From Rhodospirillaceae bacterium (GTDB lineage: Bacteria > Pseudomonadota > Alphaproteobacteria > CACIAM-22H2): a DNA stretch of 64,000 nucleotides. Positions 4,534 through 39,542 of this stretch are shown piece after piece. The number at the start of each line of letters is the position of its first letter. The stretch's first letter is position 1. Location: contig JALHMR010000005.1 of the NCBI GenBank assembly GCA_022843945.1, forward strand, positions 137,716 through 201,715. Reading direction: 5' to 3'. The notes under the pieces were generated by a model. It worked only from the letters and a program-made list of their open reading frames with translations. It was not told the origin of the DNA and made no database searches. The position numbers and the translations under genes are program-made.

Positions 4534-5670
4534 CTACCCGCGAAAATAGGGCATCACTTCCCGTGCGAAGATCTCGATGTTCTTGCGCGTCAGCTCCGCC
4601 GGCAGGGTGCCGAACTGCAGCATGGTCAGCAGATGGCCGAAGCCGATCTCCTTCTGGTACTGCTCGAGCCGGGCCCGGATGGTGGCCACGCCGCCGCACA
4701 GGAACATGCCCTTGGCGATCACGTCGTCGATGCTCTGGCGCGTGCCGATCGAGGTCTTGGCCTTCATCACACCGGCCATCGACTGCAGCGACAGGTAGCC
4801 CGGCGGCAGCAGCATCTCCATTGGCATGCGCAGGAACTTGTTGAGGAAGGCCTCGATATGCGGCTTGGCCTCGCGGTGGGCGATCTCGTCGCTTTCGGCG
4901 ACATAGAGCGGCACCGACCAGCCGAGTTGCTCCTCGCTCGCAGTGTAGCCGTAGCCCTGGGCGACCTCCTTGTACATGGCCATGTAGCGCGCCAGCATCG
5001 CCGCCGGCGTGAAGGTCTGCAGATAGGTGTATTTGCGCTCCGGTGCTGCCGCCCATTCGATGGTTTCGCGGCTGCCCTGCGAGGGAATCCAGATCGGCGG
5101 ACAGGGCTGCTGGTAGGGCCGCGGCCAGGTGTTGACGTAGTCGAAGTGGTAGTACTTGCCCTCGAAGACGAAGGGCCCCGGCTCGGTCCAGGCGCGCAGG
5201 ATCAGATCGTGGGCCTCGTGGAAGCGGTCGTGCGACTCCGCCGGGTTGACGCCGGAGGCATGATACTCGGCGCCGATACCGCGCACGAAGCCGGCGATCA
5301 GCCGCCCGCCCGTGATGTTGTCGAGCATTGCGTACTCTTCCGCCACGGTCAGGGGGTTGTTGAGCAGCGGCAGCGCCCGCCCCAGCACGGCGATCTTCGC
5401 CTGCTTGGTGCGCCGGGACAGCGCCCCGGCCGTCACCGCCGGGATCGGCATCAGGCCGTAGGCATTCTGGTGGTGCTCGTTGACGCAGATACCGTCGAAA
5501 CCGAGCGCGTCGGCCAGCTCGAGCTCGTCGAGATAGCGGTTGTAGAGGACGTGGCCCTTCTTCGGGTCGTAGTAGGTGTTGGGCAGCGTCACCCAGGCCG
5601 AGTTGTATTTCTCGTCATAGCTCTGATCGAGATCGGCGTAGGGCATGAGATGCATGAAGTAGAACTTCAT
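4534..5670 (-). CDS. LLM-class (luciferase-like) flavin-dependent oxidoreductase
   Basis: Start trimmed to MKFYFMHLMPY. The segment GFDGICVNEHHQNAYGLMP is typical of the bacterial luciferase-like family. Confidence 0.8.
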   Translation of the reverse strand: MKFYFMHLMPYADLDQSYDEKYNSAWVTLPNTYYDPKKGHVLYNRYLDELELADALGFDGICVNEHHQNAYGLMPIPAVTAGALSRRTKQAKIAVLGRALPLLNNPLTVAEEYAMLDNITGGRLIAGFVRGIGAEYHASGVNPAESHDRFHEAHDLILRAWTEPGPFVFEGKYYHFDYVNTWPRPYQQPCPPIWIPSQGSRETIEWAAAPERKYTYLQTFTPAAMLARYMAMYKEVAQGYGYTASEEQLGWSVPLYVAESDEIAHREAKPHIEAFLNKFLRMPMEMLLPPGYLSLQSMAGVMKAKTSIGTRQSIDDVIAKGMFLCGGVATIRARLEQYQKEIGFGHLLTMLQFGTLPAELTRKNIEIFAREVMPYFRG

Positions 5671-6449
5671 GTCCCGCCTCCGCCGATGAAGCGGTTGACC
5701 AGGGAGACGAACGCCACCGGCTGCTCGACATGCGGCAGGTGGCCGCAATCGCCCACGATCTCCAGGCGGGCACCGGGGATCAGCCGGGCGAAGGCCGGGC
5801 CGTAGGCCGGCGGAATGACCTGATCATGCTCGCCCCAGATCAGGAGAGTCGGCACGCTCACCCGGTGCAGCCACTTCTCCAGATCCGGGTTGTAGAAGCG
5901 CGGATGCCAGGCGAGCTTGGCCAAAGCGAGGCTGTTCTTCATGCGCGCCATCTGCGCGGCCTCGTTCTGGGGTGCGGCGATCATCGCCTCCGCCAGCTCC
6001 TGGTTGTGGAACAGCCGGCGCGCCGTCTCGTCGGCCGACCACATGAAGACGTCGCCCTTGCGCACACCCTTGACGTGGATGCCGGCCGGCGCCACCAGGG
6101 TCAGGCTCTTGAGCCGCGCGCAGCTGCGCACGGCCAGTTCCGCCGCGATCCAGCCGCCGAGCGAGGCGCCGACCAGGTGCAGGCCCTCGAGGCCGAGCCG
6201 GTCAATAACGTCGAGATAGAAATAGGCGAGGTCACCCACGTTATCGAGCCAGTCGGGCGTGTCCGAGGCGCCGAATCCCGGGTGCTCGGGGACCAGCAGC
6301 TCGTGGCGCTCGGCCAGCGCCTCCATGAACGGCAGCCAGACGGCCGCCCCGCCGGCACCATGCAGGAAGAGGATCGGCGACCCGCTGCCGGCCCGGCTCA
6401 GGCGGAACGTGCAACCGGCAACCGTCTCGGTCGTGACCGTGGGCCCCAT
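5667..6449 (-). CDS. alpha/beta-fold hydrolase
   Basis: HGAGGAAVWLPF... and the nucleophile elbow GASLGGWIA; 4-bp overlap with the downstream LLM gene. Confidence 0.8.
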   Translation of the reverse strand: MGPTVTTETVAGCTFRLSRAGSGSPILFLHGAGGAAVWLPFMEALAERHELLVPEHPGFGASDTPDWLDNVGDLAYFYLDVIDRLGLEGLHLVGASLGGWIAAELAVRSCARLKSLTLVAPAGIHVKGVRKGDVFMWSADETARRLFHNQELAEAMIAAPQNEAAQMARMKNSLALAKLAWHPRFYNPDLEKWLHRVSVPTLLIWGEHDQVIPPAYGPAFARLIPGARLEIVGDCGHLPHVEQPVAFVSLVNRFIGGGGT

Positions 6450-6574
6450 GGGTGCCGCGTCCTCCGTCTTTGTCCTTGAGTATCCGCGCCGGCGCGGCAG
6501 AGTCCAGCGAGGCGGGCCGCCGCGGCCCGTGGGCGCCCGCCCATGACCCAGAATTCGACTTGGGGAGTAATCCT

Positions 6575-7363
6575 TTGGTGCAGAGCAAGCTCTTCGATCT
6601 CAGCGGCCAGACGGCGCTGGTCACCGGCGCCGCCTGCGGCCTCGGCCTTGCTTTCACCGAGATCCTCAGCGAACACGGCGCTCGCGTTGCCATGCTGGAT
6701 ATCGACGCGGCGGCGCTCCAGCGTTCGGCGAAGCGCCTGCGCGACCAGGGCCGCGCCGTCGACGAGCATGTCGTCGACGTCGGCGACCGGACGCGGCTGC
6801 GCGGCGTCACCGACGCCGTGGCGAAACAGGGCCGGCTCGATATCGTCTTCGCCAATGCCGGCATCTCGGCCGGGCCCGGCTACAAGACCGCGGTCGGCCA
6901 GATCGAAGCGGTGCAGGACGAGGCCTGGCAGCGCGTGCTCGACATCAACCTGACCAGCGTCTTCGTCACCCTGCAGGCCGCCGCGGCCCCGATGAAGCGC
7001 CAGCGCTCGGGCCGCATCATCGTCGTTTCCTCGATCGCCGGAATCAAGTCGGAGGCGCCGGTGGGCTACGCCTATGCCGCGACCAAGGCGGCGATCAACA
7101 ACCTCGTCCGCCAGGCGGCGATGGAGCTGGCGCCGTTCAACATCATGGTCAACGCCATCGCCCCGGGGCCCTTCCGCACCAATATCGCCGGCGGCCGGAT
7201 CAACCAGCCGGAGGTCGAGGCGATGTTCGCCGCCATGGTGCCGCTGGGCCGCATCGGCGAGCCGGACGAGATCAAAGGCCTCGCCCTGCTCCTCGCCTCG
7301 CCCGCCGCCAGCTTCCTCACCGGGACCGTGATCCCGATCGACGGCGGCTCGACCGCCGCCTAG
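6575..7363 (+). CDS. SDR-family short-chain dehydrogenase/reductase
   Basis: TALVTGAACGLGLA Rossmann motif, NAG and YxxxK catalytic motifs. TTG start chosen after a GGGGA Shine-Dalgarno; the ORF-track start 6452 is probably too far upstream. Confidence 0.8.
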   Translation: MVQSKLFDLSGQTALVTGAACGLGLAFTEILSEHGARVAMLDIDAAALQRSAKRLRDQGRAVDEHVVDVGDRTRLRGVTDAVAKQGRLDIVFANAGISAGPGYKTAVGQIEAVQDEAWQRVLDINLTSVFVTLQAAAAPMKRQRSGRIIVVSSIAGIKSEAPVGYAYAATKAAINNLVRQAAMELAPFNIMVNAIAPGPFRTNIAGGRINQPEVEAMFAAMVPLGRIGEPDEIKGLALLLASPAASFLTGTVIPIDGGSTAA

Positions 7364-8514
7364 GCCGCCGACTTCCAGAACTGGCGCGAGGCCAGGCGCG
7401 CCCCTTCGGCCATCGCCGCCAGCTTCGCCCAGACGATGTCCGGGTCGACCGCCGCCTGGCCGACCCAGGTGCCGTAGCCGCAATCGGAGCCGGCGACGAC
7501 GTTCTCGCGCCCCACCAGATTGGCGTAGCGGGCCAGGCGCTGGGCGATGAGCTCCGGATGCTCGATGAAGTTCGACTTGGATTCGAGCACGCCGGGGATC
7601 AGCACCTTGCCCTCGGGGAGCTTCACCTTTTCGAACAGCGTGTACTCATGCGCATGACGCGGGTTGGCCGCCTCGAAGGAGATGGCGCTGGCCCGCGCCT
7701 TGAACACGATGTCGACGATATCGGCCAGCGGCACGTCGCAGTGATGCGGACCCTCGTAGTTGCCCCAGCAGACATGCATGCGCAGCTGCTCCGGCTTGAC
7801 GCCGGCGGTGGCGTGGTTGAAGGCCTCGATATGCAGCTCGATGCGCTTGCGGAACTCCTTCACGTCGAGATCGGCGTACTGGATATGCCGGCCCATGGCC
7901 AGGTCCGGGCAATCGAGCTGTAGGATCAGGCCGGCCTTGGCCACCGCCTCGTACTCATGGCGCATCGCCTCGGCGATGGCGAAGATGTACTTCTCGAAGC
8001 TGGGATAGTGGTCGTTGCGGAAGAACAGCGACACCACGCCCGGCGAGGCGGCGCTGAGGAAGCCAAGCTTGCCCTTGGCGCCGGCCAGCGCCGACTTGAG
8101 ATTGTCGGTATCGACCACCGGCGCCTGCTTGTCGCGCACTGAGATCGCCGCATTGCAGGCGGGCGTCTTGCGCCGCGAGCGGCCGGGGTCGCCGAACACC
8201 CGCTTGGCCATCGCGGGAAACTCGGCGAGGTCCTGGTAGACGAAGGTATTGCCCGTGCCGCCGAAGCCGGCGAGCCGGTCCTTGACGTAGGTGGCGTAGC
8301 TCGGCTTCGACATCTCGCCGTCGTTGATGATGTCCACGCCGGCCTTGATCTGCTTCTCCACCACCTCGGCCACGGCCGACTTGATGCGCGCCGCCAGCGC
8401 CGGCTTGTCGATCGGCACATCCTCTTCCTTCGCATACATCATGCGGATGAGGTCGGCCGGCCGCGGCAGGCTGCCGGTATGGGTGGTGAGAAAACGCTCG
8501 GTACTGTGCTGCAT
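7360..8514 (-). CDS. Cobalamin-independent methionine synthase II (MetE C-terminal-like) family protein
   Basis: Start trimmed to MQHSTERFLTTHTGSLPRP. UROD/MetE-like fold motifs including ...CWGNYEGPHH.... Confidence 0.7.
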   Translation of the reverse strand: MQHSTERFLTTHTGSLPRPADLIRMMYAKEEDVPIDKPALAARIKSAVAEVVEKQIKAGVDIINDGEMSKPSYATYVKDRLAGFGGTGNTFVYQDLAEFPAMAKRVFGDPGRSRRKTPACNAAISVRDKQAPVVDTDNLKSALAGAKGKLGFLSAASPGVVSLFFRNDHYPSFEKYIFAIAEAMRHEYEAVAKAGLILQLDCPDLAMGRHIQYADLDVKEFRKRIELHIEAFNHATAGVKPEQLRMHVCWGNYEGPHHCDVPLADIVDIVFKARASAISFEAANPRHAHEYTLFEKVKLPEGKVLIPGVLESKSNFIEHPELIAQRLARYANLVGRENVVAGSDCGYGTWVGQAAVDPDIVWAKLAAMAEGARLASRQFWKSAA

Positions 8515-15108: not shown

Positions 15109-15198
15109 TGGCGGACAGGGTGGGATTCGAACCCACGATACCATTGCTGGTATACCGGTTTTCGAGACCGGCGCCTTCAGCCACTCGGCCACCTGTCC
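15109..15198 (-). tRNA. tRNA-Ser (anticodon CGA), long variable arm
   Basis: The reverse complement reads GGACAGGTGGCCGAGTGGCTGAAGGCGCCGGTCTCGAAAACCGG...GGTTCGAATCCCACCCTGTCCGCCA. The acceptor stem is GGACAGG/CCTGTCC, the loop CUCGAAA gives anticodon CGA, and a T-loop and encoded CCA are present. Confidence 0.9.
15160..15198. repeat. 39-bp direct repeat (left copy, inside tRNA-Ser 5' half); putative att core
   Basis: tttcgagaccggcgccttcagccactcggccacctgtcc is identical to 42056-42094. Confidence 0.85.
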
Positions 15199-18076: not shown

Positions 18077-18799
18077 TCAATCTCCGGCACTTGGAGCTGA
18101 TTTCTGCGCTACAAAAATGGCGCGATCACCCGGTTGTTTCGCCGAGCCTTCGAAGGACCCGAATAGCTGAACTCGACGAAAGCCGGCATTTTCCAGCATC
18201 ACGCGAAGTTGGTCAGAAGTATACACGCGAAGCCAGCAGTCAAAAACCTGTTTGCCGTCTCGCAAGAACGTCGTTGATAGCAGGCCGCGATCCCAATCCA
18301 TCGTGGCAACCTCGCTGTATCTTTGACCGTTTCGAAGTTCGCGTGTTGTCTTTCCGTCAAAACTCTTGCGGACTCGATCGGCGTCAGCGACTTCGATGAT
18401 CAATCGTCCGCTCGGCCGCAGGCATTGGTGCCAACTGTTGAGCAGCTTTGCGTCTTCCGACTGACTCTCGAAATAGCCGAAGCTAGAAAACAAGTTGAGG
18501 ATCAGGTCGTAGGGTTCCCCCGGCGGATGCCTCATATCGGCCCGCCGATATTTCGGGCCGGGATTCTGTCGCTGAGCGAACTCTAACTGCTCCTTTGACA
18601 AGTCAATCGCAGTTACGTCGAACCCAAGTCGGTGCAATGCCGCTGCGTATCGGCCAATTCCACACGGCGCATCGAGCACGCGCTCTCCAGCAGACAATCC
18701 TGCAAGATCCACTATCGCACGTGCGTTACGTTCAGTTTGCGCGTAGAGCCCGACAGCTTCGCATGCTTCGACAAACTCGAGCGGGTAGGCGACATCCAC
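18077..18799 (-). CDS. Class I SAM-dependent methyltransferase
   Basis: Motif I VLDAPCGIGRYA and a post-I acidic residue (DVTAIDLS); 240 aa. Confidence 0.75.
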   Translation of the reverse strand: MDVAYPLEFVEACEAVGLYAQTERNARAIVDLAGLSAGERVLDAPCGIGRYAAALHRLGFDVTAIDLSKEQLEFAQRQNPGPKYRRADMRHPPGEPYDLILNLFSSFGYFESQSEDAKLLNSWHQCLRPSGRLIIEVADADRVRKSFDGKTTRELRNGQRYSEVATMDWDRGLLSTTFLRDGKQVFDCWLRVYTSDQLRVMLENAGFRRVQLFGSFEGSAKQPGDRAIFVAQKSAPSAGD

Positions 18800-19024
18800 G
18801 TTCTCTCTCCCTCGCTGCGGCTACATTCGTATCGAACCCATGCGATACGCCGATCAAGAATTGATTATGCCCGCATAGATTGTCAACGGATTGCTACGCA
18901 CGTATTCCGCGCACAACTGTAGGTACAGTCAGATTTTTTTATACAACCTCGGAGATTGATTTACACAAAGACCTCTCTATGATCGCGCCGCTTTGCTGCA
19001 CCCACTACATCACAAGAGGCGCAC

Positions 19025-20401
19025 ATGAGTCGGGGAGGTCGGTTCAAGTACGAGACAAACATCCTGATGGCCTCTCGTTACGGACACCATCGAAGCGCGT
19101 TGTGGCCGCCAGGCCCGTTACACAATCTGTTTTGCCTAGATCTTGCTGCTTATGCGCCGCCACTTTCTCCGCGCTTCTACGTCGAGCTCGATAACATTCG
19201 CTTTCTCGTCGCGGCCGAATGGGAGCGGTGCAAGGCTGCGGGGACGGCGCTCGATCGTCGGTTCGCTGAAGCATCAGCTCTGGCAGCGGCGTTTCGGAGC
19301 CTGAGCACCCACGTGGTGGACGAGCAAGATCGAGCTGCACTTGCGCACAGGGAGAGAGCGATGCTGACCGGCTATACGCCGGAGATACTTCGCGGGCTCG
19401 CGGAAACGGATGAGAAACTCACTGTCGTTGCTGGACACCTCTCAACCTGGTTTGGAAAAGAGGCTGCCGGCCGGCCCACGGTTTTTGCTGCCATTCGCGA
19501 CGAAGCAACCGAGCGCCTCGTTGCTAGCACGACCGCGACGGTACCGGAACTTGCCGACTACGTGTCCAGAATAGATCCCGACCTGATGTTCGCCTCGCCT
19601 CCCGCGTTCAGTTCGACAAACGTGTTTTTTATGGCCGGCGAGGGCAACCTTCATCCGAAGCATGTCGCATACTTCCTGCCGGAGGACGAGGGCGTTCGGG
19701 GGTCTCCATACAAAAAGACCTACTACTTCAACAACACGCACCGCGCCTACGTGTCGTCGATTTCATTGCCTCTCTATGAGCAGTACGCAGCACACGATCA
19801 GATTTGCAGCGCAGACAGCCTTGACCTGTTGCCTGCTCTTGGGGTGCGCGCACACGATCTCGGCCATAGTGTTAATCGTGCAAAGACCACCTTTCGCGAG
19901 CTGAACCGGCGTCATCGCTGGGAATCAGTGCTGCTCCAAGAGACAGCAGCGGACGTCTTTGGAGCGCTGTTCATTACCGATGTGTGGCCAAAGCACTTTC
20001 AGTACTCGGCCGAAGAAGGCGTCGCCTATTTTCTTGCTGAGTGCCTGCGCTACGTCGATCGAGGCCTCGGGCTCTTTCCAGATTCGGACGGAATGTTCCT
20101 GCAGCTGAACTATCTTCAGCAACATTCATATCTCCACATCGACCGTTCGCCATCGCCTCGGCTTCGGTGGGATCCGCAAGAAGTCGTCCGCGGTCTCCAA
20201 GCGCTGGCCCGTGTCCTGGCTGACGTAGTCCTTTCGGGCGATGCCGGGGCTGCCGTTGCATTCCACCACGAGTATGGGCCTTCGAATCGAAGCGCTCTAT
20301 CAGGCCTGCTCACATCGCTGGAAAGCCGCCCAATGGCATCGATCGAGTACCTGCAGGAGCATGTTGTTTCGGAGCACAGCAAATCCACCGAAGCCGCCTA
20401 A
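19025..20401 (+). CDS. Hypothetical protein (458 aa), first gene of the plus-strand operon
   Basis: Long ORF with island-like codon usage and no recognisable motif. It contains HDLGH and several conserved-looking His/Asp residues. Confidence 0.5.
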   Translation: MSRGGRFKYETNILMASRYGHHRSALWPPGPLHNLFCLDLAAYAPPLSPRFYVELDNIRFLVAAEWERCKAAGTALDRRFAEASALAAAFRSLSTHVVDEQDRAALAHRERAMLTGYTPEILRGLAETDEKLTVVAGHLSTWFGKEAAGRPTVFAAIRDEATERLVASTTATVPELADYVSRIDPDLMFASPPAFSSTNVFFMAGEGNLHPKHVAYFLPEDEGVRGSPYKKTYYFNNTHRAYVSSISLPLYEQYAAHDQICSADSLDLLPALGVRAHDLGHSVNRAKTTFRELNRRHRWESVLLQETAADVFGALFITDVWPKHFQYSAEEGVAYFLAECLRYVDRGLGLFPDSDGMFLQLNYLQQHSYLHIDRSPSPRLRWDPQEVVRGLQALARVLADVVLSGDAGAAVAFHHEYGPSNRSALSGLLTSLESRPMASIEYLQEHVVSEHSKSTEAA

Positions 20402-20415
20402 GGACGAGGAACCCG

Positions 20416-29479: not shown

Positions 29480-29815
29480 ATGCCTACCCCCCATCGGCCC
29501 TCCCTCGCGGTACGCCGCACGCTGCGGAAGCTTGGCCGGGATCTACGCGACGCCCGCCGCCGTCGCCGACTCCCCGCCGAAGTCGTAGCGCAGCGAGCCT
29601 TCACCACCCGTCCGACGCTTCGGCGTATCGAGGCGGGCGACCACGGCGTCAGCATCGGCATCTACGCCGCCGCCCTGCATGCGCTGGGCCTGCTGGAAGG
29701 GCTGGGCCAGCTCGCGGATCCGTCCCGGGACAGCACGGGCCTGGCGCTGGCCTCTGAAAACTTGCCCCAACGCGCCCGTCTCCCGCGCGCAGGCACGGAT
29801 AACGATGCCCAATGA
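29480..29815 (+). CDS. HipB-like XRE-family HTH antitoxin (second module)
   Basis: LRKLGRDLRDARRRRRLPAEVVAQRAFTTRPTLRRIEAGD is an HTH_XRE motif. It overlaps the downstream hipA-like gene by 11 bp. Confidence 0.65.
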   Translation: MPTPHRPSLAVRRTLRKLGRDLRDARRRRRLPAEVVAQRAFTTRPTLRRIEAGDHGVSIGIYAAALHALGLLEGLGQLADPSRDSTGLALASENLPQRARLPRAGTDNDAQ

Positions 29816-31055
29816 CATCGAGGTCTTCATCGAGTTCTCCCCCGGCCTGAAACGTGTCGGCACCCTCCACCGATACCAACGCCAGGAGCGGGAGGCCGTC
29901 GGTTTCGAGTATCACCCGGCCTGGCTCGAGGAGCCGGAACAATTCTCCCTCGAGCCGGCGCTGACCCTGCATCGGGGCGCCTTTGTGCCGGCCGAGGGCC
30001 TGACCATCTTCGGCTCGATCGGCGATTCGGCACCCGACACATGGGGGCGAAGGCTCATGCAGCGGGCCGAGCGCCGGCGTGCCGAACGCGAAGGACGGAG
30101 GGTCAGGGCCCTGATGGAGGCGGACTACCTGCTGGGGGTATCCGATGTAGCCCGGCTGGGCGCGCTTCGCTTCCGGCGGGCCGGGGAGGAGCATTTCCAG
30201 GCGCAGGCAGACCAGGGTGTCCCGGGACTGATCGAGCTCCAGCGTCTGTTGGGAATCACCGAGCGGATCCTCAGGAACGAGGAGACGGACGAGGATATCC
30301 AGATGATCTTCGCGCCGGGCTCATCCCTCGGCGGATCCCGGCCCAAAGCCTCGGTGATCGATCGGGACGGGCATCTTGCTTTGGCGAAGTTCCCCAAAGA
30401 GAACGACGACTACAGCCTGGAGCTTTGGGAGGCCGTCGCGCTGCAACTGGCAGCTCGCGCCGGCATCAACACATCAGAGCATCGACTGATCGAAGCCGCC
30501 GGCAAGCCCGTCCTTCTCTCCCGACGCTTCGATCGGGCTCAAGGTACCCGAGTTCCCTTCCTCTCCGCCCTGTCCATGCTCGGCATGAAGGATGGGGACC
30601 GTGGCAGCTATCCCGACCTGGTCGATGTCTTGAGCCAGCACGGTGCGCAAGCGGCAGATGACGCCAGGGAGCTGTACCGTCGCATGGTCTTGAACGTTCT
30701 TATCTCGAACGTCGACGACCATTTGCGAAATCACGGCTTCCTATGGACGGGGCGCAAAGGATGGGCCCTCTCTCCGGTTTACGACCTGAACCCTGTTCCC
30801 ACTGACATCAAGTCCCGGATACTGACGACCAATATCAGCCCGGACGAAGGCACTTGCGATATGCGCCTCGTCTTGGACGCCGCAGAATATTTTTCCTTGG
30901 ACGGGGCTGCGGCAAAGGAAATCGTCAAAGAAGTCGCAGCCGCCACGGCAGAATGGCGAAACGTTGCAAGAAGTTTTAATGCGCCGCCTGCTGAAATCCG
31001 TCGCATGGAGAGCGCGTTCGAGCACGAGGATCTACAAAGAGCCTTGGCATTGTGA
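29805..31055 (+). CDS. HipA-like Ser/Thr kinase (second, divergent copy)
   Basis: FAPGSSLGGSRPKAS (P-loop-like/couple motif) and NVLISNVDDHLRNHGFL...SPVYDLNP (HipA_C catalytic motifs). Start trimmed to MPNDIEV; 416 aa. Confidence 0.8.
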   Translation: MPNDIEVFIEFSPGLKRVGTLHRYQRQEREAVGFEYHPAWLEEPEQFSLEPALTLHRGAFVPAEGLTIFGSIGDSAPDTWGRRLMQRAERRRAEREGRRVRALMEADYLLGVSDVARLGALRFRRAGEEHFQAQADQGVPGLIELQRLLGITERILRNEETDEDIQMIFAPGSSLGGSRPKASVIDRDGHLALAKFPKENDDYSLELWEAVALQLAARAGINTSEHRLIEAAGKPVLLSRRFDRAQGTRVPFLSALSMLGMKDGDRGSYPDLVDVLSQHGAQAADDARELYRRMVLNVLISNVDDHLRNHGFLWTGRKGWALSPVYDLNPVPTDIKSRILTTNISPDEGTCDMRLVLDAAEYFSLDGAAAKEIVKEVAAATAEWRNVARSFNAPPAEIRRMESAFEHEDLQRALAL

Positions 31056-32122: not shown

Positions 32123-33289
32123 ATGTTCGTTTATGTGGCCGCGGCGTCAGCCGAGGGCCCCTGCAAAATCGGATCGGCGATCGACCCTCACAGGCGTTTG
32201 CGTGCGCTGCAGACGGGAAGCGCCCGGTCGCTCTCCCTTTATATGGTCGAGCCAATCGGCATCACCGCCAAGCAGATCGAGCGAGCCGTGCACGAGATAT
32301 TGGCTAGCCGGCGCGCCGGCGGCGGCAAGGAGTGGTTCGATGTCGCTCCTGCCGAAGCCGCAGCGGCTGTCCGGGCGGCAGCCATAACCGCCAACTCATC
32401 GCTCGACGACAATCTCAGCCTTGATGAGTTGCAGACCAGGACCATCCTTGCCTGGGTGAAAGCCTATGAAGAGCTTCGGCAGCAGGCCGAAGAGGCCGAC
32501 GAGTACTATGAGGCTGAGGATCGAGAGCCGCCCTCTTTTCTGTCGTTGTTCGCCGCGACCCTCCGTCCGCAACACACCGGCCGCTTCGATTTCAACGACT
32601 ACCTCCTGTCGCTTTCGGATGGAATGTGGCTGCGCTGGGCGTTTGAACGGCTAGACAAACGTCTTCCCACCGGGCGAAAAATCGAGCCTTACATTGAAGC
32701 AGCCCAGTATCTCGAGGAGGATGCTGGGTGTCGCGAGAGAGTTGAGCCCCTGATCTGCTGGATCGAGTGGAGCGCTGCGCGCGAGCTGACCCATCGTGAA
32801 GCTCATCATTTCGCGTCTATCTGGGATGAGTTCGCGCCCCGTCACAACCGCATCGAGCGCTACGGTCCGCAATGGGCAACCTACGGCATCGATGACCATG
32901 TCGACGATGTGCATGTTCTCGCCCTTCGTGGGGATGAGCGCCGGGGTGACCGCGACCGCATACTGTTCGTCCATCAGGACTTCAGAGTGGTGCTGGTGCC
33001 TGAGAAGCGCATCGATCTCTGGGGTGATCGCGAGTGGCGCCTCAACCTCAACCCCCTGAAAGGTATCGCGGTCTCGGGCTTCGTCACGCCGATCCTGCGC
33101 AGCGGGGACTGGCGCATACCCTTCCGGCCCTGGCTGCGCGGTTCCCGCCAGCGCGTCGATCAGAGTCTGCACCGGTTCCTGGACAATCCGGCCAAGCGCT
33201 ATCCCGTACAACGCGCTTACGACGGAATTCAACCGCAGACCTGCGTGTGGTGCCAGCTGCCGTCAATCGACCAGAATGGCCATTACTGA
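32123..33289 (+). CDS. T5orf172/MUG113 (GIY-YIG-like) domain protein with about 290-aa C-terminal unknown domain
   Basis: N-terminal VYVAAASAEGPCKIGSAIDPHRRLRALQTGSA...KEWFD matches the T5orf172 pattern (YV....-KIG.T....R...LQT). The C-terminal region is Trp/Arg-rich and unassignable. Confidence 0.55.
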   Translation: MFVYVAAASAEGPCKIGSAIDPHRRLRALQTGSARSLSLYMVEPIGITAKQIERAVHEILASRRAGGGKEWFDVAPAEAAAAVRAAAITANSSLDDNLSLDELQTRTILAWVKAYEELRQQAEEADEYYEAEDREPPSFLSLFAATLRPQHTGRFDFNDYLLSLSDGMWLRWAFERLDKRLPTGRKIEPYIEAAQYLEEDAGCRERVEPLICWIEWSAARELTHREAHHFASIWDEFAPRHNRIERYGPQWATYGIDDHVDDVHVLALRGDERRGDRDRILFVHQDFRVVLVPEKRIDLWGDREWRLNLNPLKGIAVSGFVTPILRSGDWRIPFRPWLRGSRQRVDQSLHRFLDNPAKRYPVQRAYDGIQPQTCVWCQLPSIDQNGHY

Positions 33290-33570: not shown

Positions 33571-34245
33571 TCAGCTACTCTGTCGACCGGCTGGGCCGAT
33601 ATGGCCGATGTATGGCATCCATTGAGCCAAGTCCACCAGACGCTGAATCTCCTTGGACCGTAGTATCGACAGAATGATCGATGCAATTTCATGATGGATG
33701 AGGTTCCGATCGTTCACCGCTAACGACAGACCAGCCATCCCTTCGTGCTCTAGACGCCAAAGCAGTTCGAACTTTTCCTTTTGCGACTTCTGCGCACGGC
33801 CCGCGGGGTCGTAGTGATTTCCACCCTTCGTATTAGCAATGAACTGGATCAGCGCGTGGCGCGATATCTTCATTCCCTTGAAGTAGATGCAGGGCGCTCG
33901 AAGGAAGTCGGGAAGATTGAAGCGCTTCGGCTCGAGATGCACATCGTCTCCCCATCCGGTCGAGATCGGAACGCCTGGCATGATTTCGGCCCCGCCGCAG
34001 AAGCCGACCGACTGAGACCCGGGAGGGGATGAAAAGGCCATTGCATCGACGACGATCGGCCCGCCAATTCCGGACGTTTTCCAGGCGCGTGCGAGATTCT
34101 CTTCCACCAGCAGGAACCGCAAAGAAGCAGCGGCTACGCGAAGTCTGTGCTCTCCCGCAGCCGGCGCGGCCGCATTCCGAAGCACAAGCAAATGCTCCAC
34201 ACTCATCTTGAGCAGATCTACTTCCTCTCTCGAAAAGATCTTCAT
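33571..34245 (-). CDS. Hypothetical protein (224 aa), downstream partner of the CoiA-DUF2384 gene
   Basis: Same strand, 83-bp gap after the 582-aa gene. No RES/Fic/HEPN motif detected. Confidence 0.4.
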   Translation of the reverse strand: MKIFSREEVDLLKMSVEHLLVLRNAAAPAAGEHRLRVAAASLRFLLVEENLARAWKTSGIGGPIVVDAMAFSSPPGSQSVGFCGGAEIMPGVPISTGWGDDVHLEPKRFNLPDFLRAPCIYFKGMKISRHALIQFIANTKGGNHYDPAGRAQKSQKEKFELLWRLEHEGMAGLSLAVNDRNLIHHEIASIILSILRSKEIQRLVDLAQWMPYIGHIGPAGRQSS

Positions 34246-34328
34246 GGAGCCGACCGCCAGCTTGTTACTAGGCTAAAACGTGTTCCTGGTGAAATTGTTG
34301 GGCGCGCAGGCATCGAACGCCACGCTCG

Positions 34329-36077
34329 TCAGTCACGAAACGGGCGGCCGACGGCGCTGTAAGCCTCGCAAAAGGCAGCATGATAGTTCCCGGTGCGCGC
34401 GCTTTCGACTGGTGACGACCCCCCAAGGGCCTCACAGGGTGTTTCGAGCCAACGATCAGAAAGCCCCAGCTGCGCTGCCACAGCCCGTATAGTCCTCTCG
34501 TGTAGCTGCGCTGCAAGGAGGGCAAGCTCCTCGTCCCGCTCCCTCTTTGCACGAGCCCGTTCCTCTGCCTCCCGCCTTCTGATCGTCAGTATCCGATCAA
34601 GTGGGAGGCCCATGAGATCGTCGACCGGCTCACCGCCCGGTACCAACATCGCTTGAAGCGCCGCCAGCTTGCGCAGCAGCTCGCCGTGAGCGATGCCGCG
34701 TTCGCAAAGCTGCCGTGGGGAGGGCCCAAGATTTTCACCGGCGGTATCGAACCATCTCCTTGGGTCAAAGCCGTTTCGATCAGCAGGATCAAGCTCATTG
34801 ATGATCGCGTCGCAACGGTCCAGCACTGCTGCGGCCCGCTCCTTGAATAACTGTTCGCTCAGCTGCCTCTGTTCTTCGTCAGACCAGACATCGTGGCTGA
34901 TACGCCGATGACCGCGGCCTGCTTTCTCCAGGATGCGTTTGCCTTCGAGGAAATCGACATAGGCCATCAGCACGTTGAACGGGGACACGAAATCCGGGAT
35001 CTCGCGCCGCACGGCGGCCTCGTCCGCATCGCTGATGAACCCGCTAAGTCCGCCCGCGATCAGATGATACAAGCGGGGATAATCGAAGGCATCCTTCAGC
35101 GTGAACGTGGACGAACGGCGTTCGCGCAGCGGGCCCATAACAAACCGATCTATGAGGAGCGCCTGCCAAACCGCTGGAGCGACGGTGAACGCGAAGTCTC
35201 CTTCGACCGCCGGGCCAACCAGGTTGCCAAAACGGCTGTTCCGGACATTCTCGAGGATACCGGCCAGTACAGGAGGAGGGGGCTGCCGGCGGTCGGCCGC
35301 GACTTTCGCCTCGGTCGTAGCCGCGACGAGCTTGGCGACCCGTCCCGCTTGCGCGCGCCGGCGTTCCTGGTCCGCGCGCTCCTGTATTTGACGCCGCCGC
35401 TCCGCCTGTTGCTTGAGCCTGCTCTCTGCAGCGGCAATCCTCGAATTGTATATCCATTCTCTCGGCGCCAGGCTATGCAGCGCCGCAGCGACGTCCGGGA
35501 TCGCGGCATTGCGTACCAGTCGCGAAAGATCGATCTCGACAGTGTCGAGATCCATTTCCGCAAGCCGCTTCTTCTTCTCACGCCCGCATTTGTGGGTGTA
35601 ATAGATCTCTATCAACAGATCCCGCCCGCCGACCGTCGCCATTACATCGGGGATGACTCCGTCGAGCCGCTCCTCGATCCGGACATTGATGAGAGTGACT
35701 TCGGCTTCTTCGGCGATGACTACCGATTGCTCGTCGCCAGATGCGACGAGAGCCGGAAGGAGCAAGACCGGGTGCTGTTCCAGAATCTGCTTGCCGAGAA
35801 GATGGACGATCGTCTGGGGACCGGTGCGGCAGTTCGTTCCCGGCGGATGCGCGAAATGATCCTGCTTCTCTTCGCCATGACGCGCGATGAGCGGCGATTT
35901 GCACGCAGGACAGATGCAGCCGCAGGCCGCGCCGTTCGGGACGGTCGACACATGCACGACCTCGCCGTTGCGCAGCGCGTAAGCCAGCTTGACGCCGTCG
36001 CCTGACCAACGGTTGCCCTCGAAAGCGCACTCCGAAACAGGTGGCGCGGTTAAGTGACTTTCGGTCGTCATTGGCAA
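34329..36077 (-). CDS. Fusion protein: N-terminal CoiA-like putative PD-(D/E)xK nuclease, C-terminal DUF2384 (Xre/MbcA/ParS antitoxin-type) domain
   Basis: N-terminus CGCICPACKSPLIARHGEEKQDHFAH (CoiA Zn-ribbon plus the HFAH hallmark) and ...DVMATVGGRDLLIEIYYTHK (nuclease-core-like). C-terminus RWLETPCEALGGSSPVESARTGNYHAAFCEAYSAV matches the W-L-x-T-P-x-x-A-L-G-G-x-x-P DUF2384 signature. Confidence 0.55.
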   Translation of the reverse strand: MPMTTESHLTAPPVSECAFEGNRWSGDGVKLAYALRNGEVVHVSTVPNGAACGCICPACKSPLIARHGEEKQDHFAHPPGTNCRTGPQTIVHLLGKQILEQHPVLLLPALVASGDEQSVVIAEEAEVTLINVRIEERLDGVIPDVMATVGGRDLLIEIYYTHKCGREKKKRLAEMDLDTVEIDLSRLVRNAAIPDVAAALHSLAPREWIYNSRIAAAESRLKQQAERRRQIQERADQERRRAQAGRVAKLVAATTEAKVAADRRQPPPPVLAGILENVRNSRFGNLVGPAVEGDFAFTVAPAVWQALLIDRFVMGPLRERRSSTFTLKDAFDYPRLYHLIAGGLSGFISDADEAAVRREIPDFVSPFNVLMAYVDFLEGKRILEKAGRGHRRISHDVWSDEEQRQLSEQLFKERAAAVLDRCDAIINELDPADRNGFDPRRWFDTAGENLGPSPRQLCERGIAHGELLRKLAALQAMLVPGGEPVDDLMGLPLDRILTIRRREAEERARAKRERDEELALLAAQLHERTIRAVAAQLGLSDRWLETPCEALGGSSPVESARTGNYHAAFCEAYSAVGRPFRD

Positions 36078-36410
36078 TCCGAGTCGGGAGGGCGGCTATT
36101 TTACCGTACCGACATGAATTCAGGCCTGGCCGCGGCGCTTGGGCGGCTATCCCCTACTGCTGGCTGGGGAATCCGGCACCGGCGTGCCACAGGAATGACA
36201 GTACCGCCTCGCGCGTTCTGTCTGAAGCGAGGGAAGTCTTCGCGACGGGGCCGGAATGTTGAATCGAGAAACGCCCGAAGTGCGTCGACGGTAGGGCCGA
36301 GGTTCGGCCATCGAGCCGATGGAAGAAATGTGGCCCGGAGGGCGTTGTAGTGCGGCCGCAACAACAAGGCCGAAACCTGCCCGTGAGCCTGGCCCGGGGG
36401 AGATGAAGTC

Positions 36411-37283
36411 ATGATGACCGTCACAATTAGCAGCATGGTCGTGGCGGAAATTGCGCCTGCGCATTCAGTTATCCTTCGCTCGCTTCTAGGTGCTTGCGAG
36501 CTGCAGTTTCCGTTGAAGATCCGGAACACGCAGAAGGAGGGCGACAAACGTTCAGCAATACTCACCGGCTTTCAGGTGACGGTTCAAGGTAATGCCGGCG
36601 GCGAGCAGCCGGTAGGCATTGCTCGGCCGGAAGTCCCTTTTCGAGTTATCCCTTCCCGTGCGGGAAGCACTCGGGACGTAAACTTTTCGGCGGTGATTCA
36701 GCCCAGCCAAGTGCTCGCCATCGAAAATCTACGCGATGGAGGCGACCTTACTTTCAAGCTCACGCTTTGCGGCGAAGGATGGGAGGAGGATTCTGAGCGT
36801 CACGATTATTGCAGCGGCAGCATGCGTGTCGGCCGATCGCATTGGATCGATCAGTTGAAGAATTCGCGGATGCTTGAGGTGCTGCTGATAGAAGTACCTA
36901 TGCCTGTCGTCGACTTGCCAAAGACAATGCAGAAGGTCCGCGACGACCTCCTCAAGGCTCAGAGATTCTTTCTGCTCGCGGATTACGTCGAGTGCGTTGC
37001 GACGTGCCGACATGTGCTCGATGAGATCGGGAACAAGGCTCACGGAAAGAACTGGTCTGGACCGCTGCTTAGCCGGCTCGCGAAGGATCGCGACGATCCC
37101 GAGAACGATCGAGAGAAAATGAAGAAAAGCGAACGGGAGGCGGCGGTTATGGCCTCCGTCCGCCACTACGCCCACCCGGCGCATCACGCCGAGAGCGATG
37201 GAGGAGAACACTATAGCCGGCCCGAGGCAAAACTCATCCTCTCGTTGACTGCGGCGATCTCAGCGCGAGCGCTGGAGCAATGA
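36411..37283 (+). CDS. Hypothetical protein (290 aa)
   Basis: Unique ORF divergent from the CoiA-like gene; no motif. Confidence 0.4.
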   Translation: MMTVTISSMVVAEIAPAHSVILRSLLGACELQFPLKIRNTQKEGDKRSAILTGFQVTVQGNAGGEQPVGIARPEVPFRVIPSRAGSTRDVNFSAVIQPSQVLAIENLRDGGDLTFKLTLCGEGWEEDSERHDYCSGSMRVGRSHWIDQLKNSRMLEVLLIEVPMPVVDLPKTMQKVRDDLLKAQRFFLLADYVECVATCRHVLDEIGNKAHGKNWSGPLLSRLAKDRDDPENDREKMKKSEREAAVMASVRHYAHPAHHAESDGGEHYSRPEAKLILSLTAAISARALEQ

Positions 37284-37302: not shown

Positions 37303-37890
37303 TCACTCCGCAGTGGCCGGGAGCGAATCAACTCCAAGTTCGCGATGAAGTATTTCAATCACAGCAATCGCTTGCATGGTTACTTCATCGTGCTGCTGTC
37401 CTGCCAACAGCACTCCCTGTGCGGCGCTGCTGAACGCTACTGCATTTGCGCCGCGCTTGCCGTCCTCACCCGTAAGAGCACGATCAAAAGCAGTCAACGA
37501 ACTCATTGCAATGGCCGCCGACCCATCAGGATCAGTATTGAGCATGCGTTCAATGACCTCGAAGGCCGCCTCGGCGTCTTTCTTTAATCCTTGAAGCCGC
37601 TCCAGCTCGATCGGTAGCAACTCCCTGCCACTTAGTAGTGATTGCGCCGCATATAGGGTGACCATTGCGTTCTGCACGTCGCGTAGCTGCGCAAGTACTG
37701 CGGAGACATGCCAGTTTAGTTCCGGGAGGTCAGCGCGCCACCGGCTCTCAAACTCTAAATCCGGGAGAGCTGCGTACTTTGTGATTTGAATTGCCATCTG
37801 TGCCACGATGGATGAGCGCAGCAGCGGCACCACGACCAAAGCCGATGACGATTCGCAAACTCTCCTCAGTTCCTGAAGATGATGGTTCAC
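37303..37890 (-). CDS. Hypothetical protein (195 aa), translationally coupled to upstream NTPase
   Basis: Its start overlaps the NTPase stop by 4 bp; alpha-helical, no motif. Confidence 0.4.
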   Translation of the reverse strand: MNHHLQELRRVCESSSALVVVPLLRSSIVAQMAIQITKYAALPDLEFESRWRADLPELNWHVSAVLAQLRDVQNAMVTLYAAQSLLSGRELLPIELERLQGLKKDAEAAFEVIERMLNTDPDGSAAIAMSSLTAFDRALTGEDGKRGANAVAFSSAAQGVLLAGQQHDEVTMQAIAVIEILHRELGVDSLPATAE

Positions 37891-39542
37891 CCACTGGCTA
37901 AACTCAAAAAGGGTTCCGCACGGAACGAGTAAACATATTTCCCAATCCGGCCATGCAATATCTCGCGTGACCGCAGGTCATGAAGCCCACGGATTGCTCC
38001 GCCCTCATCGGCGCCAACAAGATGCTCATTCCGAAGACGAAGGAAGGCGATGGCAAACTCCGTCTCCGACAGCCCTGAAGTTTCGAGTAACGAGGGCCTT
38101 TCGATGCGTGCTCCATACATGCCTGCTACCGCAGCGATGGGAAGCACGGCCAGTTCATGTCTGCGGCCCTCTCGAACACGCCGTTGAACCTGTTCGAAAA
38201 TGACGTCACGCAGCCGTGCGCCCTGAGTCAGGATGTGCGTGAATTCGAGCAGGAGCCCTCCGGATTGCTCGTAGGCTTCCTTCCAGTGCCCACGGCTCGT
38301 CGCCTTAGCTTCACGCAGTCGTGTCCAGATTCTTTCGGCGAGCTCTTCGAGAAGTTTGGGCCGCTCAATGGTGACGTGGTCAAGCGCAGCCAATACCCCG
38401 ACATCTTCTTCGCGGATTGAGCCTACGACTCGCAGACCTGGCAGGTACCGAGCCTGATCAACCAGCCAGGCCCAGGTCGTATCGGCGCCGCGTCCAACGT
38501 CATCTACATAGACAACAAGAGGGCGATCGGCAGTCGGCGCCTGGGACCGGATGCTTCTCAGCAAGGTCGCTCTGTCAGATTCAGCCATCCTTGCCGCTTC
38601 GATCCAACGAAGGGCATGGCGTGTTTCAAACGCTGCCAGATAACAAAGCGCGCTTTTGCCAGACCCGGAAGGCCCAGCCACCAATACGTGGCGGCCTAAC
38701 AGGAGAGGCCTTACAACGGCATCGACGTCCTCCGGGCGGGGCTGCACCAGACCCGCTGCGACATGGCCTGAACGAGTAGAAACACCTTCGTAGTAGTGCT
38801 GGTCGTGAACTGGCGTATGGAAGTCTATGAACTGGGCTAAGCCCTGTCGAAACGCGCCGTCAACGGCTTCAGAATCTATGAGATTGAGAGCTCGAGAGAA
38901 GACTGCGTGGACGTCCCCAACCGTGATAGAAGCCCGTGCATTGTATGCGCGTCGTGCATTCTCGGAGGCCGTCACGCCCACCTGATGCAACAAGCTACGG
39001 GCACACAGCGCGGCTCCGGCGATTCCTATTCCACACTTGTTTGCGATCAGTGCCTCCGCGTCACGAAGTGGCGCCAATACGGTGATTAACGTCGTTCGCT
39101 CGAGGCGCGCCCGCATCAGAGACTGTCTCGCTGGCTCGTCAGCAACGGCATCTAGAAGTGCGTTGGCAAGCTGAGGCAGATCAGCAATGCGCCGCTGCCA
39201 ATCGCGATTTTCAATGTCCAGAAAGGGGCGATCCAAAAAGATCGTACGCCGATCCTCATCGGCGCCCTTGCCGCTCAGAATGATGTCGGCGATTTCCTTC
39301 GCCCTGAATTGTGCTTTTGGATCAATCTTGGATTTCGCTTGAATCCAGTTCGCTCCCGCCGCCCCTTCCACGCCTATGTCATCAAGTGACTCAGGAGTGA
39401 CGGAGTTGGCGGCTATCTCGCCGTGCCAGATTGCCGTTAGTACGAAAACGGTCGCGGCGTCCTGAAAGCGAAATCCTGCTCCGGCACGGGCACCCGCCCG
39501 ACTTGCCTGCCAAGCAAGTGTCATTGGATCTGCGTCGGCCAT
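37887..39542 (-). CDS. P-loop NTPase with N-terminal restriction-endonuclease-like region (defence-associated?)
   Basis: Walker A VLVAGPSGSGKSALCYL and Walker B LVVYVDDVG. The N-terminal region GFRFQDAATVFVL...DDIGVEG...IQAKSK has a D...E/QxK-like nuclease motif; 551 aa. Confidence 0.6.
   Translation of the reverse strand: MADADPMTLAWQASRAGARAGAGFRFQDAATVFVLTAIWHGEIAANSVTPESLDDIGVEGAAGANWIQAKSKIDPKAQFRAKEIADIILSGKGADEDRRTIFLDRPFLDIENRDWQRRIADLPQLANALLDAVADEPARQSLMRARLERTTLITVLAPLRDAEALIANKCGIGIAGAALCARSLLHQVGVTASENARRAYNARASITVGDVHAVFSRALNLIDSEAVDGAFRQGLAQFIDFHTPVHDQHYYEGVSTRSGHVAAGLVQPRPEDVDAVVRPLLLGRHVLVAGPSGSGKSALCYLAAFETRHALRWIEAARMAESDRATLLRSIRSQAPTADRPLVVYVDDVGRGADTTWAWLVDQARYLPGLRVVGSIREEDVGVLAALDHVTIERPKLLEELAERIWTRLREAKATSRGHWKEAYEQSGGLLLEFTHILTQGARLRDVIFEQVQRRVREGRRHELAVLPIAAVAGMYGARIERPSLLETSGLSETEFAIAFLRLRNEHLVGADEGGAIRGLHDLRSREILHGRIGKYVYSFRAEPFLSLASG

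Follow-up and report, generated by a model that had tools for sequence, protein, structure and literature searches.

The 64,000-bp stretch analysed here (hereafter the window; positions 137,716 to 201,715 of contig JALHMR010000005.1, Rhodospirillaceae bacterium assembly GCA_022843945.1) carries two neighbouring genes on its minus strand, which we call A and B. A encodes a protein of 582 amino acids (aa) in which a preliminary description of this DNA had recognized a CoiA-like nuclease fused to a DUF2384 antitoxin-type domain; B, which encodes 224 aa, was taken to be its partner in a toxin–antitoxin or defence pair. The list of open reading frames (ORFs) places both genes on the same strand with an 83-bp gap between them, as had been described. 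Comparison of A and B loci in other genomes points to a different relationship, in which the two genes are probably independent single-gene cassettes and A is a self-sufficient nuclease. The features of the two genes are as follows.

34329..36077, minus strand: gene A, 582 aa when read from a TTG start
36072..36106, minus strand: conserved 5′ leader of A with a −10-like TAAAAT at 36098-36103, from DNA alignment and blastn
35826..35981, minus strand: CoiA-type zinc ribbon of A, residues 33-84, with C52, C54, C56, C59, H74/F75/H77 and C83
35448..35822, minus strand: PD-(D/E)xK-like α/β nuclease core of A, residues 86-210, from the alignment, the structural model and Foldseek
35295..35444, minus strand: single long helix of A, residues 212-261, from AlphaFold secondary structure, with a predicted local distance difference test score (pLDDT) above 94 for the block
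34899..35273, minus strand: helical domain of A with a winged-helix-like end, residues 269-393, from the AlphaFold model
34647..34895, minus strand: repeat copy 0 of A, residues 395-477, containing RWFDTAGENLGPSPRQL, a long helix followed by a small DUF2384-like bundle
34353..34598, minus strand: repeat copy 1 of A, residues 494-575, containing RWLETPCEALGGSSPVESA, a long helix followed by a DUF2384-like bundle
34246..34328, minus strand: A–B spacer, 83 bp, without a terminator-like hairpin
33571..34245, minus strand: gene B, 224 aa
34165..34258, minus strand: codons 1-27 of B with the ribosome-binding region, common to the loci L003 and L006 described below
33691..33708, minus strand: B residues 180-185, R-N-L-I-H-H, at the start of the penultimate helix, of the R-x4-6-H / R-N-x-x-x-H type

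Because A is 580 aa long in its NCBI copy and starts there at an ATG at position 36071, this codon is probably the true start, which gives a protein of 580 aa. The −10-like TAAAAT in the leader may be a promoter element, judging by its sequence. The three peptides quoted in the preliminary description all belong to A (residues 52-77, 144-163 and 542-569), and the last of them is part of repeat copy 1.

The proposed CoiA-type zinc ribbon of A is borne out by the Pfam model CoiA_N (PF25164), which matches residues 55-84 with 33.5 bits against a cutoff of 26.3. The same model matched 49 of 61 relatives of A when these were scanned one by one, and the Cys and His residues of the ribbon are invariant or nearly so in the alignment of the 61 sequences. 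The CoiA assignment did not extend to the nuclease model of that family, PF06054, which failed to match A even at E ≤ 1 and is absent from the families matched by the 61 relatives at E ≤ 0.01.

The next segment is probably, as had been read, a PD-(D/E)xK-like core. E135, D144 (in a P-D-V motif), E157 and K168 are invariant in the 61-sequence alignment, and T161, H162, E181 and D183 are nearly so. The AlphaFold model of A (pLDDT 91.9; predicted template modelling score, pTM, 0.65), in which residues 1-27 are disordered, arranges the elements of this segment in an order that fits the α-β-β-β-α-β core of PD-(D/E)xK enzymes. A Foldseek search of the model against the PDB returned a list dominated by such nucleases (Bax1, RecU, Hjc, PrfA, Can2, SPARDA, DpnI, MGME1 and HincII, none of them individually significant; best E 0.038), and BsuBI_PstI_RE matches residues 111-179 weakly. 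Regulators of the GntR, IclR and IdeR types also appear in the Foldseek list. They are winged-helix proteins, and the end of the helical domain of A is modelled as a winged-helix-like unit with helices at residues 350-359 and 366-379 and strands at 383-385 and 390-393. The long helix that precedes this domain (residues 212-261) is possibly, on the evidence of the model, a coiled-coil or dimerisation element.

The identification of the C-terminus as DUF2384 needs a more qualified statement. Taken by itself, A falls below the threshold of PF09722 (Xre_MbcA_ParS_C/DUF2384), with 15.6 bits against a cutoff of 24.5, over 21 residues and at E 0.016, and the NCBIfam Xre/ParS antitoxin model lies far under its cutoff. 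The family as a whole tells more: 33 of the 61 full-length relatives, each scanned separately, match PF09722, with a best E of 4.2e-13. A profile of copy 1 finds the Xre antitoxin 6GW6_B (E 1.4e-3), ParS 6D0H_B (0.12) and MbcA 6FKG_C (0.34) in the PDB, and a profile of copy 2, a further repeat that is missing from A, finds MbcA 6FKG_C (E 6.8e-5) and the DUF2384 protein 8GUG_B. The matches of the copy-1 profile to ankyrin proteins were discarded as a short G-x-T-P-L-x-L-A resemblance summed over repeats. The three copies are related to one another according to hhalign, with a probability of 96.8% (E 2e-10) for copy 1 against copy 2, 96.4% (E 1e-9) for copy 0 (A residues ~408-480) against copy 1, and 86.6% (E 4e-6) for copy 0 against copy 2; W442 in copy 0 is nearly invariant in the 61-sequence alignment. 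The DUF2384 homology of the repeats, as read from sequence profiles, therefore holds at the level of the family and is sub-threshold for A alone.

Three such repeats are present in 87, and two in 32, of the 121 family representatives that reach 560 aa or more. Three is the canonical number for the family; A, like P0002 and P0003, is a variant with two, having lost copy 2. In 73 of 113 long members the third repeat is followed by a Lys/Arg-rich tail, and repeat and tail are both missing from A and its two closest relatives. Relatives of about 390 aa from Microvirga have the nuclease and winged helix-turn-helix (wHTH) module without any repeat, and no separate DUF2384 gene was found near them. 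Two DUF2384 matches that had seemed to lie outside A-family genes, at loci L014 and L020, proved to be frameshifted parts of the A-family gene itself. At L020 (6016-7910, Sinorhizobium kostiense) this gene is split into a 499-aa ORF and, 5 bp further on, a 129-aa ORF with repeats 1 and 2, and is probably a frameshift or a pseudogene.

The fusion had been called unusual, a view that the size of the family overturns. An exhaustive HMMER search, with representatives defined as clusters at 50% identity, detected 5,769 representatives at E ≤ 1e-3, of which 317 reach E ≤ 1e-30, so that at least 317 such clusters, mostly from Alphaproteobacteria, have the architecture of A. The best 150 representatives are mostly 600-700 aa long and align to A from residue ~25 to residue ~565; 121 of 152 family sequences have at least 560 aa, and the median is 632. 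A word-indexed search returned five full-length relatives, and a scan of GTDB species genomes, in which an alignment of 12 sequences served as the query, yielded 80 A-family loci with full-length members only in Alphaproteobacteria. Because these relatives are long and colinear with A over its full length at 25-83% identity, A is one gene and not a pair joined by a frameshift, with which the confident full-length model agrees. A phage origin was also rejected (0 matches in 50,697 phage records). The zinc-ribbon and nuclease module of A was found in 2,237 plasmid records, mostly of conjugative enterobacterial plasmids; the carriers are for the most part large plasmids from Klebsiella, Escherichia, Salmonella and Enterobacter, and the proteins are annotated as 'hypothetical' or 'competence protein CoiA family protein'. 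No description of the A architecture was found in the limited collection of literature that could be searched.

At E ≤ 1, searches of Pfam, NCBIfam and PADLOC gave no match for gene B. They thus showed no relationship to RES, DUF4238 or any other family in these collections, which upholds the earlier statement that B is not a RES toxin. Its match to a PHROG family without known function is weak. We detected 90 homologs of B, about 205-215 aa in length, all of them unannotated and none with a Pfam domain; genes of this family stand alone in mobile and defence settings. The model of B (pLDDT 83.7, pTM 0.83) has a helical core with a β-rich insert at residues 65-128. R180 is invariant in the B family and H184, H185 and E186 are nearly so, within a block N-x-R-N-L-x-H-H-E that leads into the helix 182-195. 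HEPN domains are marked by an R-x4-6-H motif where a core helix begins, and B has R180-H185 in that position. B is thus possibly an RNase of the HEPN type, a weak candidate put forward on its sequence motif.

The proposal that A and B form a toxin–antitoxin or defence pair does not survive comparison with other genomes. Homologs of B are present at none of the 80 A-family loci in GTDB species genomes, and homologs of A at none of 28 B-family loci, 27 of which were added by a metagenome scan. B has no conserved neighbour among its 28 loci. For A, a census of four genes on either side of 26 full-length members, clustered by BLAST, found no conserved partner; the only recurrence was a DUF4238 gene at 3 of the 26 loci. 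A convergent gene lies directly 3′ of the A-family gene at 12 of the 26, and of the genes in the island that surrounds A and B in the window, HipA alone recurs at A-family loci (three of them). No gene for a RES or ART toxin was identified beside A, B or the 26 full-length relatives, and no RES domain was present among the island ORFs scanned in the window.

Individual loci make the same point. At L001 and L002 a gene of the helix-turn-helix family HTH_31 is followed by a 455-aa gene, by A and by a convergent gene; A is intact and B is absent. L003 has the same order and an additional downstream gene, and at L004 A is followed by a DUF4238 gene. B, for its part, stands at L006 after an HTH_31 gene and genes of 232 and 354 aa and before an OLD-family nuclease, at L008 after an integrase and a 293-aa gene, and at L013 after a WYL protein. 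The gene 3′ of A at L003 (4307-4960) is a chimera, in which the ribosome-binding region and the first ~27 codons of B are followed by the C-terminal part of a Dam-type (D12) methyltransferase, corresponding to positions 166-230 of the 253 in its profile. It is a recombination scar at an A-to-B junction, with an intact A next to a destroyed B.

At L014, a gene for an Xre/MbcA/ParS-type antitoxin (5017-5706; middle domain E 5e-21) ends 198 bp upstream of an A-family gene (5905-7849) that occupies the place where a RES toxin would be expected. This A-family gene itself carries a frameshift, so that its repeats 1 and 2 are read in a different frame. The arrangement, a single case, may point to DUF2384 interacting with the nuclease, or the antitoxin may be an orphan.

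The neighbours of A-family genes suggest the kind of place in which these genes are kept. At L001 and L003, the 455-aa gene directly upstream of A matches the anti-phage gene PD-T7-1 over its full length (E 8e-157), and other tightly linked neighbours in the family are PD-Lambda-2_C (Beta_protein), a JAB protein, and an LmuB-like SMC ATPase with a metallophosphoesterase. L001, L003 and L006 share a platform that consists of an HTH_31 gene, 95-97% identical between them, and a divergent 132-aa gene, 72-80% identical and LRAT/NlpC-like (L001:5706-7913, L003:174-2381, L006:3-778). The cargo behind the platform varies: PD-T7-1 and A at L001; PD-T7-1, A and the remnant of B at L003; and the 232-aa and 354-aa genes, B and the OLD gene at L006. 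Such a platform resembles a hotspot for defence genes in one family of elements. It is absent from the window, and homology between the window and L001/L003 extends from about 45 nt 5′ of the A ATG to no more than about 15 nt from the stop codon. Considering (i) that the 80 A-family loci have no B and the 28 B-family loci no A, (ii) that neither has conserved neighbours, and (iii) that the hotspot holds variable cargo, A and B are separate cassettes that are shuffled within defence islands, and B is a solo gene that is not part of any A system.

In the window, both genes lie in a low-GC stretch at ~15-42 kb (57-60% GC, compared with 67-70% in the flanks and the genome), which contains two HipBA modules, a T5orf172 protein and a STAND-like NTPase. 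Its start (window 15109-42000) adjoins a tRNA-Ser(CGA) gene at 15109-15198 on the minus strand; the stretch is on the 5′ side of the tRNA gene, whereas the 3′ side is usual, and no integrase was found for it. The genes nearest to A and B are the following.

26463-26801 and 26798-28096: HipBA-type module 1, HTH_31 and then HipA (HipA_C E 3e-52)
29480-29815 and 29679-31055: HipBA-type module 2, HTH_31 and then HipA (E 1e-45)
32123-33289, plus strand: 388-aa protein with an N-terminal T5orf172/MUG113 (GIY-YIG-like) domain, convergent to B
36411-37283, plus strand: 290-aa ORF without matches, divergent from A
37303-39542, minus strand: 551-aa P-loop protein with weak matches to STAND NTPase-5 and AAA_16, and a 195-aa ORF

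The 388-aa protein has a long C-terminal part without annotation. The 551-aa and 195-aa genes overlap by 4 bp, which suggests a two-gene operon. Further inside the island, positions 18077-26201 hold a biosynthetic-looking cluster with two S-adenosylmethionine methyltransferases, an Orn/DAP/Arg decarboxylase, a THDPS-like hexapeptide acyltransferase, a class I/II aminotransferase, a GNAT protein and an EamA exporter.

Combining these observations, we propose that A and B, which adjoin each other in a low-GC island of ~27 kb rich in toxin–antitoxin and defence-type genes, are single-gene cassettes independent of one another and that A is an autonomous nuclease with accessory repeats, a reading to which we assign a probability of roughly 0.6. 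A would be a DNA endonuclease that acts in conflicts between the host and mobile elements, with D144, E157 and K168 as the putative active site and with the zinc ribbon and the winged helix as predicted DNA-binding parts. The C-terminal repeats may be accessory modules of recognition or regulation for a protein or nucleic-acid ligand, and would not neutralize the product of an adjacent toxin gene; candidate roles are autoinhibition, the sensing of a protein and the binding of nucleic acid. In this sense the DUF2384 part may serve the nuclease as a regulator or sensor, as suggested earlier. The A cassette would move together with ~45 nt of its own 5′ leader.

Several observations weigh against this proposal. 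No individual Foldseek match of A to a nuclease in the PDB is significant, and among PADLOC models, none of which describes A, the sole match is a weak one of DruB to the zinc ribbon (E 1.3e-3). Because the ~390-aa relatives lack them, the core module can dispense with the repeats, a fact that reveals little of their contribution where they are present. Finally, the two genes have the same orientation and are separated by 83 bp without a terminator, and their junction is kept in the L003 scar; co-transcription and some functional interplay of A and B are therefore possible in this strain.

Of the other explanations, the one that survives best, although it is unlikely, makes A a fused toxin–antitoxin in a single chain, whose repeats would fold onto the nuclease until a trigger from an invader releases it and causes abortive infection, in analogy to the fused system CapRel(SJ46). 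That A stands alone with its own leader in defence hotspots would suit such a system, and the long helix in front of each C-terminal repeat might, in the model, serve as a lever arm. In MbcA, ParS and Xre it is DUF2384 that binds the toxin, and there it blocks the toxin's active site (PMC7758455; bioRxiv 2024.05.20.595033), but its known partners are NAD-using enzymes of the RES/ART fold and not PD-(D/E)xK nucleases. Moreover, the nuclease–wHTH module of the ~390-aa relatives has neither repeats nor a DUF2384 gene nearby, the loss of copy 2 is tolerated in A, P0002 and P0003, and the pTM of the A model is just 0.65. Quite improbable, and kept here as a speculative extension, is the idea that the A family represents a new class of self-guarded defence nuclease, in which the DUF2384 repeats of the same chain would hold the nuclease inactive and release it when they bind a protein of the invader. 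The trigger might be a RES/ART-type NAD-targeting enzyme of a phage or plasmid, this being the natural ligand class of DUF2384, and an antitoxin domain would then have been repurposed as a sensor.

More doubtful still is the explanation that A processes DNA and is no defence effector; it would be a recombination nuclease or a structure-specific resolvase that serves mobile elements or repair in the manner of CoiA, RecU and Hjc, with the winged helix and the HTH-like DUF2384 repeats as DNA-binding modules. The Holliday-junction resolvases RecU, Hjc and PrfA are among the top Foldseek matches, and CoiA, a structure-specific D-loop resolvase, has the same N-terminal zinc finger (bioRxiv 10.1101/2024.02.06.579203), yet PF06054 matches neither A nor any of its 61 relatives. 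The Lys/Arg-rich tail of many long relatives, the name 'another HTH domain' that DUF2384 has received in NYN fusions (PMC2848206) and the frequency of the N-terminal module on conjugative plasmids would all be in keeping with DNA processing; the distribution of the family is patchy and island-borne, however, without conserved recombination or conjugation neighbours, and its tightly linked neighbours are defence genes. Least probable is a dedicated two-gene toxin–antitoxin or defence pair, with B in place of a RES toxin and either the DUF2384 part neutralizing or sensing B or B controlling A: the shared strand and short terminator-free gap, the many invariant polar residues that give B the look of an enzyme, and the A-to-B junction at L003, where A is 67% identical and the spacing, the ribosome-binding region and the first 27 codons of B are kept, are outweighed by the lack of co-occurrence at the 80 A-family and 28 B-family loci, by intact A genes without B (L001/L002) or beside a B destroyed by recombination (L003), by a B homolog of 86% identity that comes after an unrelated 354-aa gene, and by the genes 5′ of B homologs, whose inspected translations have no DUF2384-like C-terminus.

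The A family is thus an uncharacterised family of nucleases and not a new type of toxin–antitoxin system. Its characterisation would add a widespread, unannotated solo nuclease to the genes that take part in island and plasmid conflicts in Alphaproteobacteria, rhizobia and methylotrophs included, and would reveal the role of the "toxin-binding" DUF2384 in a setting without RES toxins, where it is repeated in tandem on the same chain as a nuclease. The zinc-ribbon and nuclease module is carried by clinically important plasmids. Two cautions for annotation follow: adjacent genes in defence hotspots are not automatically toxin–antitoxin pairs, and "competence protein CoiA" is an unsuitable name for proteins of the A type.

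Among known systems, Druantia shows a weak similarity to A. The match to DruB is confined to A residues 54-91 and covers 38 of the 552 profile positions at E 1.3e-3, and apart from it no Druantia gene was seen in the window, where the neighbours are HipBA, T5orf172, the STAND-like NTPase and unannotated genes.

A also resembles CoiA. It has an N-terminal zinc ribbon with the H-F-x-H signature, above the CoiA_N threshold, and behind it a probable PD-(D/E)xK-type core with the Asp on one strand and the Glu on the next, and it probably shares the CoiA fold. CoiA, a D-loop resolvase of the PD-(D/E)XK type whose zinc finger is N-terminal, is restricted to Bacillota (bioRxiv 10.1101/2024.02.06.579203) and acts in natural transformation, whereas the A family is alphaproteobacterial and borne on islands or plasmids. 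Furthermore, A lacks a match to PF06054 and possesses a winged helix and DUF2384-type repeats, both of which CoiA is without.

With the Xre/MbcA/ParS antitoxins A shares the small helical DUF2384 unit and its W-L-x(5)-L-G-G-x-x-P motif, a likeness that is shown at the level of the family. These antitoxins, which plug the active site of RES/ART toxins (PMC7758455; bioRxiv 2024.05.20.595033), have 70-150 aa and a single DUF2384 domain, whereas A has 582 aa with two tandem copies fused to a nuclease, and they sit just upstream of a RES/ART toxin, of which there is none beside A. The premise that DUF2384 occurs only in small stand-alone antitoxins was in any case too narrow, since fusions of DUF2384 to NYN/LabA-type ('LK') nucleases were reported in 2010 and 2017 (PMC2848206, PMC5499597). 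The theme of a nuclease and DUF2384 in one chain is therefore already in the literature; the nuclease is a PIN-like NYN domain there and a PD-(D/E)xK core in A, and tandem repeats, a zinc ribbon and a winged helix are not described in those fusions. In its genomic habit, A resembles PD-T7-1 and other single-gene anti-phage nucleases: although A is not homologous to PD-T7-1 (no such match in PADLOC), it likewise stands alone in variable hotspots, and its closest relatives lie immediately 3′ of PD-T7-1 itself.

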